Shown: piece after piece, positions 1,370-51,465 of the stretch
Layout of the letters: each line of letters opens with the position of its first letter
Position numbering within the stretch: the first letter of the stretch is position 1
NCBI GenBank assembly: GCA_031260565.1
Contig: JAISLH010000015.1
Span: forward strand, 452-64,451
Direction of reading: 5' to 3'
Length of the DNA: 64,000 nucleotides
Origin: Bacteroidales bacterium
GTDB lineage: Bacteria > Bacteroidota > Bacteroidia > Bacteroidales > P3
Position numbers and translations under genes: made by a program
The notes under the pieces: generated by a model
Database searches by the model: none
What the model was told of the DNA's origin: nothing
What the model saw: only the letters and a program-made list of their open reading frames with translations

Positions 1370-1757
1370 GCAACCAAAACTTTTTTCAGTTTTTTCTTTC
1401 TCGTATCAAAAACTTTTTGTAACTTTGCACCTTGAAATGTAAGAATTTTGAGGTGCTTTTGTTTTTTACCAAGAAAAAGCAGAATGTCCAAAAAGTGATT
1501 ACAGAGTAAAAACAAGACTATAAAGAGTTCATTGAGAAAGGTTTATATGGTGCAAATATGGGGATTTTACCATTATTCAATACCCTCAACAGATTGAAAC
1601 ACACACAATTATCTGTGGTAGAGTTGTTTTAGACTGCAAAGGTAGTATTTTTTCTGATAATAGCATAAAAAATTGAGTATTTTAGCAACATAAGCCTATA
1701 ATTTATAGCAATCTTTTTCCACAAGATTTCCTCTTACCTCTGTCTTAATTTCACGAA

Positions 1758-1848
1758 ATGCCACCTTAATTTTCTAAAGCGGCGTTTCGTGACGCTGAAG
1801 TGGCGTTTCAGGAAATTAAAACGCCGCTTTAGGAAAATGAGGTGGCAT
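1758..1848. repeat. Family-A palindromic intergenic element, copy 1
   Basis: atgccaccttaattttctaaagcggcgtt ... aacgccgctttaggaaaatgaggtggcat forms 26/29 inverted ends. It contains three 13-mer boxes AAAG[C/T]GGCGTTTC or their complement. Confidence 0.9.
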
Positions 1849-10403: not shown

Positions 10404-10497
10404 ATGCCACCTTAATTTTCTAAAGCGGCGTTTCGTGACGCTAAAGTGGCGTTTCAGCGTCACGAAACGCCGCTTTAGGAAAAGCAAGCAGAGTTTG
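10404..10497. repeat. Family-A palindromic element, copy 2 (perfect 23-bp stem)
   Basis: The left stem is ctaaagcggcgtttcgtgacgct (10420-10442), the loop is aaagtggcgtttc (10443-10455) and the right stem is the exact reverse complement (10456-10478). Confidence 0.95.
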
Positions 10498-26837: not shown

Positions 26838-26915
26838 CAAACGCTGTTTTAATTTTCTAAAGTGGCGTTTCGTGACGCTAAAGCGGCGTTTCAGGAAAAT
26901 GAAACGCCACTTTAA
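26838..26915. repeat. Family-A palindromic element, copy 3 (box order swapped)
   Basis: In ttctaaagtggcgtttcgtgacgctaaagcggcgtttcaggaaaatgaaacgccactttaa, the T-type box occupies the outer positions and the C-type box the centre. Confidence 0.85.
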
Positions 26916-32707: not shown

Positions 32708-32835
32708 CAACTTTTATTCAATACAACCAAAAAAACGCTTATTTTACTAAAAACAAGTATCCGTTTTCTCAGTGGTCTATATTTTTCAATAAATAGCTAA
32801 TACATTTTGGAGATAAGAAGGATGAATTTATCAAA

Positions 32836-32929
32836 ATGCCACTTCATTTTTCTAAAGCGGCGTTTCGTGACGCTGAAACGCCACTTTAGCGTCACGAAAC
32901 GCCGCTTTAGGAAAATGAGGCAGAGTTTC
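32836..32929. repeat. Family-A palindromic element, copy 4 (central box inverted)
   Basis: It has the same 23-bp stems as copies 2 and 6 (32852-32874 / 32888-32910). Its loop reads gaaacgccacttt, the reverse complement of the loop in copies 2 and 6. Confidence 0.95.
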
Positions 32930-33003
32930 ATTTCAATCAAGCAAAAAAAAGAAAAGGACAGATTTGCACCTGCCCTTTTCTAATTCAAGCCTTAACGGTT
33001 TAT

Positions 33004-44520: not shown

Positions 44521-44802
44521 GGAAAATTATTTTTAATAACTGCGGTTTTTGCACTTTCATTCAAAAAATATTTTTCAAGGATTGCCACATTCTTTCAAAT
44601 ATGTTATGTGTCTTTCTGTATTCCTGCTTTTTTATCCAATAATCTTCACGCAATTTTCTACTTTCTTTTATTACTTTAGGTTGAGGACAACTTAAGGAGT
44701 CTTTTTGCCGTATTTAATGATAGCAAAGGTACATCTTTTTTTTTGAAACAACAAAATAAATCATCATTTTGCCCTCCTCTACCCACATTCTAATTTAGCA
44801 TT

Positions 44803-44898
44803 ATGCCACCTTAATTTTCTAATGCGGCGTTTCGTTACGATGAAACGCATATTTAGCGACACGAAACGCCGCTTTAGGAAAATGATGCAGAGTTTGGT
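44803..44898. repeat. Family-A palindromic element, copy 5 (degenerate)
   Basis: The sequence is atgccaccttaattttctaatgcggcgtttcgttacgatgaaacgcatatttagcgacacgaaacgccgctttaggaaaatgatgcagagtttgg. Confidence 0.85.
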
Positions 44899-44948
44899 TA
44901 AAATAAAACAAAGAAATAGCGAAATGATGCTAAGCAACAAACTTTTAT

Positions 44949-51370: not shown

Positions 51371-51465
51371 GTGCCACCTTAATTTTCTAAAGCGGCGTTT
51401 CGTGACGCTAAAGTGGCGTTTCAGCGTCACGAAACGCCGCTTTAGGAAAATGAAGCAGAGCTTGA
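51371..51465. repeat. Family-A palindromic element, copy 6 (perfect 23-bp stem)
   Basis: The stems are 51387-51409 and 51423-51445 and the loop is aaagtggcgtttc (51410-51422). The core is identical to copy 2. Confidence 0.95.

Follow-up and report, generated by a model that had tools for sequence, protein, structure and literature searches.

Flips of a loop bounded by a stem have precedents in the hairpins of plastid DNA and of rRNA, and in quasipalindromes. Template-switch (quasipalindrome) mutation was reportedly treated by Ripley in 1982, by the Lovett laboratory, and by Loytynoja and Goldman in 2017, and Kelchner and Wendel are said to have described, in 1996, small ('minute' or 'flip-flop') inversions associated with hairpins in plastid non-coding DNA. 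In the Bacteroidales, the segments known as invertons are recombinase-driven invertible promoters of roughly a hundred to several hundred bp.

The loops of perfectly paired hairpins are inverted by template switching that leaves the stem without a trace, bacteria included (PMC8794818). The typical loop in that study, by Monttinen and Loytynoja (2022), is 4 nt long, and at most 7–8 nt (PMC8794818). Template switching also homogenizes the arms of inverted repeats (PMC5941160), and a further source describes arm homogenization by the same route (PMC8604942). In plastids, inversions of 5–50 bp bounded by inverted repeats of 11–24 bp are widespread (Kim and Lee 2005, cited in PMC12928735).

Here we describe a loop of this type within a window of 64,000 nucleotides, by which we mean the whole stretch of DNA that was analyzed. 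The flip in the core that we call copy 4 is a real, recurrent small inversion of the kind already known from hairpins, and its 13-nt loop with 23-bp arms fits the dimensions of the plastid inversions.

The copy 4 core and its siblings in the window

On inspection of the sequence, copy 4 (32852–32910) consists of perfect 23-nt arms around a 13-nt loop, GAAACGCCACTTT. The left arm (32852–32874, plus strand), CTAAAGCGGCGTTTCGTGACGCT, is made up of 2 nt, a C-type box and the 8-nt spacer GTGACGCT. It pairs without a mismatch with the right arm (32888–32910, plus strand), AGCGTCACGAAACGCCGCTTTAG, and 2 more bases are paired beyond the 21-mer that serves as the arm motif. The loop itself (32875–32887, plus strand) is a T-type box. 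Outside the arms, the left or 'P' side (32822–32851, plus strand) holds the degenerate box aaatgccacttc followed by the spacer atttttct, and the right or 'Q' side (32911–32940, plus strand) the spacer ggaaaat followed by the degenerate box gaggcagagtttc. A hairpin with a T run at 32950–32981 on the minus strand is separate from the repeat; it resembles an intrinsic terminator and ends the upstream S8 peptidase / T9SS gene.

Two sibling cores on the plus strand, copy 2 (10420–10478) and copy 6 (51387–51445), carry the loop AAAGTGGCGTTTC at 10443–10455 and 51410–51422, respectively. This is the majority orientation, 'F1'. The copy 4 loop is the exact reverse complement of both at 13 of 13 positions, and thus stands in the minority orientation, 'F2', relative to its flanks. 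These flanks follow in the same order in all three copies, with ..(a/g)tgccac..ttttct on the left and aggaaaa...gcagag(t/c)tt on the right. Between the two loop forms there are 7 differences in 13 positions, while all 46 arm positions are identical across copies 2, 4 and 6; this is an inversion, and independent substitutions cannot account for it. The original prediction had described the identical 23-bp stems, the reverse-complemented loop of copy 4 and the same asymmetric outer flanks, and the sequences are as it described them. It had also assigned the inverted orientation to the degenerate copy 5, rightly, although the loop of that copy had been placed at 44841–44853. The core of copy 5 spans 44819–44877 (plus strand), with 4 arm mismatches and the F2 loop gaaacgcatattt at 44842–44854. 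Copies 2, 4, 5 and 6 all have the P flank to the left and the Q flank to the right, and both absolute loop orientations are present inside the one 64-kb window.

Across the window, the 21-nt arm motif matches at 10 sites, whereas 100 shuffled sequences gave 0 matches. Related mosaic copies lie at 1755–1830 (plus strand), where a box, a spacer, a box-GTGACGCT-box unit, a spacer and an inverted box follow one another without long arms, and at 26838–26915 (plus strand), where a T-type box, GTGACGCT, a C-type box, aggaaaat and an inverted T-type box are found. As a separate observation, copy 5 (44680–44900 of the window) and C10:8166–8380 (contig and positions) sit in a common unit of about 213 nt, the left part of which contains AAAGGTACATC and then a T run, recalling the GATGTACATC arrays.

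A mosaic family built from one box

The source genome is a short-read metagenome-assembled genome of 2.05 Mb in 133 contigs, with 38.6% G+C, and the window is part of contig C94. The basic unit of the repeat family is the 13-nt box AAAGYGGCGTTTC, with 301 exact copies genome-wide (0 for the reversed-pattern control) and 585 copies when at most 1 mismatch is allowed (control, 16). With at most 2 mismatches the number of boxes rises to 984, but the control then gives 203, and the counts of 585 and 301 were therefore used. Boxes are separated by 8-nt spacers, and 453 adjacent box pairs are spaced at exactly 21 nt, so that the module is a 13-nt box plus an 8-nt spacer, or 21 nt in total. The arm 21-mer occurs 177 times in the source genome.

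The most frequent structure is a simple hairpin of a box, GTGACGCT and an inverted box. The 'type A' core, to which copy 4 belongs, reads box-GTGACGCT, central box, AGCGTCAC-inverted box. Given that its center is built as a box, the 'loop' is itself one unit of the repeat. This central box is of the T-type in either orientation (7 and 10 exact copies) and of the C-type in none, which fits the inversion of a single sequence. Across the mosaic family, boxes and spacers are found both ways round and in many combinations, and the orientation dimorphism is thus general to the 13-nt box and the 8-nt spacer. A second long-arm architecture, whose spacers are turned round compared with those of type A (box-AGCGTCAC ... 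GTGACGCT-inverted box), occurs at C35:13053, C49:4045, C91:6074, C102:41685 and C129:14822, as well as at C52:21132 and C53:4771. It also carries a central T-type box in either orientation.

Type A elements are dispersed, are about 115–120 nt long and have imperfect terminal inverted arms, the outer arms being weakly complementary. Their cores are internal and intergenic, at 23 loci between chromosomal genes (PFK, S8/T9SS peptidase, S46 peptidase), and T9SS sorting domains in proteins that neighbor the repeats assign the organism to the Bacteroidota. The box hairpin is also part of a composite repeat of at least 500 nt, with about 32–46 copies outside the window (for example C41:13352–13795 and C22:10969–11428), in which it is followed by TTTTGGCAAAAAGCACGAAAAAGGGGATAAAATACCATATTATCCCC... 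and then by another conserved AT-rich stretch.

Recurrent inversion of the loop

The genome contains 23 type A cores, and the arms are perfect in 11 of them. Polarity was scored only where the outer flanks differ enough, as they do in 16 copies, and in these the sequence outside the arms keeps the P-left, Q-right orientation throughout the genome. The loop is in the F1 orientation, as in copies 2 and 6, in 11 polar copies and in the F2 orientation, as in copy 4, in 5. The original prediction had spoken of one inverted family-A copy; copy 4 is indeed flipped, but the ratio of 11:5 among polar cores shows that this wording understated the phenomenon. Tabulated without statistics for the 16 informative copies, the loop state has no evident relation to local GC skew and no evident pattern with respect to the direction of the neighboring genes.

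The F2 orientation does not mark a subfamily. No diagnostic substitution unites the F2 copies, nor do they cluster by flank similarity (permutation, 1829/5000), and for 3 of the 4 F2 copies tested the nearest neighbor by flanks is an F1 copy. The closest pair of paralogs, copy 5 (F2) and C10:8273 (F1), have opposite loops within their common 213-nt composite, despite 85% identity and a flank distance of 0.12. Loop inversion is therefore recurrent and does not track the relatedness of the copies.

A further flip is found in a related composite subfamily. It numbers about 43 copies, and in its hairpin 13-bp arms enclose an 8-nt loop, GTGACGCT (gtgacgct). In 1 of the 43 (C78), the loop is flipped to AGCGTCAC (agcgtcac) with both long flanks unchanged. 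Flips are thus commoner with 23-bp arms (5/16) than with 13-bp arms (1/43), as hairpin-driven switching predicts. The proposal of an inversion bounded by perfect inverted repeats is borne out, and the inversion recurs across the family, as seen in the 11:5 ratio, in the opposite loops of the closest pair and in the single 8-nt flip. Template switching or recombination mediated by a hairpin would be expected to give this picture.

Divergence is about 2% in the core and about 29% in the flanks, which shows that a homogenizing process or selection acts on the core, and either could blur the history of the flips. Since the loop matches the arms in conservation and yet is tolerated both ways round, any role that it has more likely depends on duplex or cruciform DNA than on a strand-specific RNA.

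Origin of the flipped loops

We consider it probable that the flips are fixed, historical events, in which the stem-bounded loop of a species-specific mosaic repeat was inverted recurrently by template switching during replication. In a type A core, a box with GTGACGCT and the reverse complement of this unit form the 23-bp arms around the third, T-type box, and this central box would have been flipped within its locus on several independent occasions in the history of the family. The nascent strand may fold back on the hairpin, or copy the opposite strand through the loop, and then rejoin its template; such a switch would invert exactly the segment between the arms. The orientation, once fixed, would then be inherited at each locus. 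Because the arms are identical, and because a cruciform or duplex shows both loops at once, a flip should be nearly neutral at the DNA level, and both states would therefore persist, at about 2:1. We infer the timing and the mechanism of the flips from the sequences, with a template switch as the most likely mechanism, and gene conversion from an oppositely oriented copy would yield the identical product.

Computed folding of the cores as single-stranded DNA hairpins gave −32 to −40 kcal/mol, with z = −8.7 to −11.6. The predicted hairpin of copy 4 reaches −40.3 kcal/mol, whereas copies 2 and 6 lie at −32 to −34, and in the inner flanks of copy 4 10 of the 12 nearest outer positions are complementary, compared with 7–8 in most copies. 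We considered whether the left flank of copy 4 is a template-switch chimera, and rejected it as proof because the same module variant (..CTTC atttttct) is present in other copies of the family. The strongest footprint of such a switch would be a flipped loop together with a parallel change in the arms of that copy, and the flank pairing of copy 4 gives no more than a hint of it. A compensated arm change, GTTACGCT/AGCGTAAC, which may be another footprint of arm copying, is found in one copy, which is an F1 copy.

Another possibility, which we regard as rather unlikely, would be exchange between copies: a copy lying the other way round would have supplied the loop and part of the arms, through short-tract gene conversion or through template switching, as one instance of a module shuffling that is general in the mosaic family. 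Each module, box or spacer, can indeed be found either way round and variously combined, the inverted-spacer arms (B s b S b) among them, and some copies are non-polar, of the P..P' or Q'..Q kind. The contrast in divergence between core and flanks is also what concerted evolution would give. On the other hand, the homology amounts to just 23 bp per side, which is marginal for RecA-type conversion, and an intramolecular switch over a hairpin of this stability is kinetically far closer at hand. Moreover, no flipped loop is accompanied by a donor-specific variant.

It is doubtful that the loops are still flipping, such that the long-stem cores invert often in living cells, each locus is mixed and the assembly has kept just the more frequent form. 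Such a flip-flop could modulate an array of box-binding proteins or the neighboring genes. The 11:5 ratio is not significantly different from 1:1, the arms are perfect in 11 of the 23 cores, and several contigs stop at the loop/stem junction. A minority loop form could still be hidden by bubble merging in the assembler. However, no F1/F2 bubble was found among the contig-end pairs of the genome, and contig breaks at the cores are expected from repetition alone, the box being present at 37 of the 266 contig ends. A 13-bp segment is also too short for recombinase-mediated inversion. In addition, the subfamily with 13-bp arms stayed at 42:1 while its flanks diverged by 10–25%, indicating that flipping there is slower than substitution. 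A bolder version, in which the long-stem cores flip at high frequency without an enzyme, so that at least 20 loci are mixed and the middle box of each three-box array is presented to a box-binding protein now in direct, now in inverted arrangement, appears very improbable to us. If true, such enzyme-free flipping at at least 20 loci would amount to a dispersed, stochastic regulatory or chromatin-organizing switch. Whether the orientation is fixed or not is a matter beyond what short-read assemblies can tell, and the finding would gain greater importance only if both forms coexist at single loci in reads.

Other repeats are also found at the contig ends. Tandem TTGGTATATACCTACCGAATTT units followed by direct, 21-nt-phased AAANNGGCGTTTGG-like boxes are found at C4_R, C40_R, C54_L, C62_R and C71_L; the boxes of this TTGGTATATACCTACCGAATTT/AAANNGGCGTTTGG array are direct, not inverted, and many contigs break there. 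The pairs C61_R/C89_R, C49_L/C88_R, C112_L/C115_R, C124_R/C125_R and C132_R/C133_R continue past a common 119-mer with 92–95% identity in coding-like sequence, which suggests recent paralogs or two co-assembled strains in the bin.

The existence of two subfamilies, in which one ancient inversion made an F2 master and F1 and F2 were then amplified separately by transposition, is highly unlikely. The dispersed elements, with their length of about 115–120 nt and imperfect terminal inverted arms, do look like MITEs. Nevertheless, the absence of a common diagnostic substitution, the lack of clustering by flanks and the F1/F2 composition of the closest pair speak against it, and the data point to F2 copies that would be polyphyletic. 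Furthermore, no transposase is linked to the family, and a search for the Y1/RAYT transposase (Y1_Tnp, PF01797) gave 0 matches in the source genome, which is 99.1% complete, while control genomes gave matches. Nothing links the flip to a chemistry of transposition, which was one of the readings offered by the original prediction.

Finally, that the assembler picked the loop orientation at the copy 4 locus arbitrarily is hardly credible. The genome is indeed a short-read assembly in 133 contigs, and the orientation of a short-loop inverted repeat is ambiguous for any k no longer than its arms. However, contig ends overlap by exactly 119 nt, the mark of a de Bruijn graph built with k=119. One 119-mer spans the whole 59-nt core and reaches about 30 nt into the copy-specific sequence to its left and right, so that the orientation of the loop relative to its flanks was seen in single reads and is no graph artefact.

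Template switching across the hairpin remains our preferred reading of the flips. The flips contribute to the mosaic variety of this large family of intergenic repeats, which is species-specific. In practice, neither point substitutions nor subfamily membership must be read from the loop orientation in these repeats.

Distribution of the family

The arm 21-mer is absent from 30 relatives, three genomes of the same genus included. Neither the 55-nt core nor the 21-mer has a match in the genome-contig collection, and the 55-nt core has none in the JGI metagenomes. Two matches to the 21-mer in the other collections lie inside coding sequence and were rejected as chance. An Rfam search of the window returned only a tRNA. 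Searching for a second strain by exact flanking proteins yielded only Logan contigs of one public run, which end inside the left arm and so carry no loop. Orthologous empty sites were sought in the three same-genus genomes, where the neighboring genes differ or one flank alone aligns; synteny is thus lost at the loci tried, and they offer no empty site or orthologous comparison.

One of these genomes, G003, contains a small related family of near-palindromic boxes, GAAACGSCGTTTC / GAAATGGCGTTTC, in a strict 22-nt phase (23 boxes; L025:1450–1560 and L027:1495–1590), with the spacers GTGACTCAT/ATGAGTCAC in both orientations. Boxes of the GAAACGSCGTTTC type number 9, all isolated, in another same-genus genome and do not rise above the control in the third. 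The repeat family therefore predates the species of the window and expanded in it, and the box looks like a dimer-type operator that was amplified there. G003 also has, upstream of its PFK gene (L013:1330–1440), a long, nearly perfect palindrome, gtcccacgaaaaaaaaatttatctccacgaaaaa / tttttttttcgtggagataaatttttttttcgtgggac, and thus possesses hairpin repeats of its own that are unrelated in sequence to the family of the source genome.

Comparison with known systems

The Bacteroidales invertons belong to the same phylum and likewise consist of a segment bounded by inverted repeats. They need a site-specific recombinase, whereas the 13-bp segment described here cannot be looped for synapsis. The flip and flop forms of the parvovirus / AAV terminal hairpin offer a similar picture, two forms that differ by an asymmetric segment inverted inside a palindrome. 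Those hairpins are the ends of linear replicons, inverted in every round by rolling-hairpin replication and the Rep nickase, whereas our cores are internal to the chromosome, at 23 loci, and no such genes were identified.

As repeats, the boxes recall the REP, BIME and REPIN elements of the Proteobacteria, which are also abundant, species-specific, intergenic palindromic units with alternating orientations and fixed linkers. The present family differs from the REPIN-RAYT systems in that its genome has no Y1_Tnp/RAYT gene, and from REP and REPIN elements in that the box has no GTAG head and the modules recur strictly every 21 nt.

The closest likeness is to inversions that involve a hairpin alone. 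The small inversions of plastid DNA are of the same size class, and they are homoplastic and independent of relatedness, as are the flips of the F2 copies. The difference is that we deal with a bacterial chromosome, and with paralogs in one genome, not with orthologous sites among species. Template-switch mutation shares with copy 4 the exact reverse complement between perfectly paired arms, the unchanged flanks and the independent recurrence. The 13-nt loop is longer than the loops typical of that process (4 nt, and at most 7–8 nt; PMC8794818). Moreover, the hairpin belongs to a set of 23 copies, dispersed and near-identical, and its loop is a unit of the repeat. To conclude, the type A cores provide a clean bacterial example of hairpin-bounded loop inversion, replicated internally across paralogous copies.
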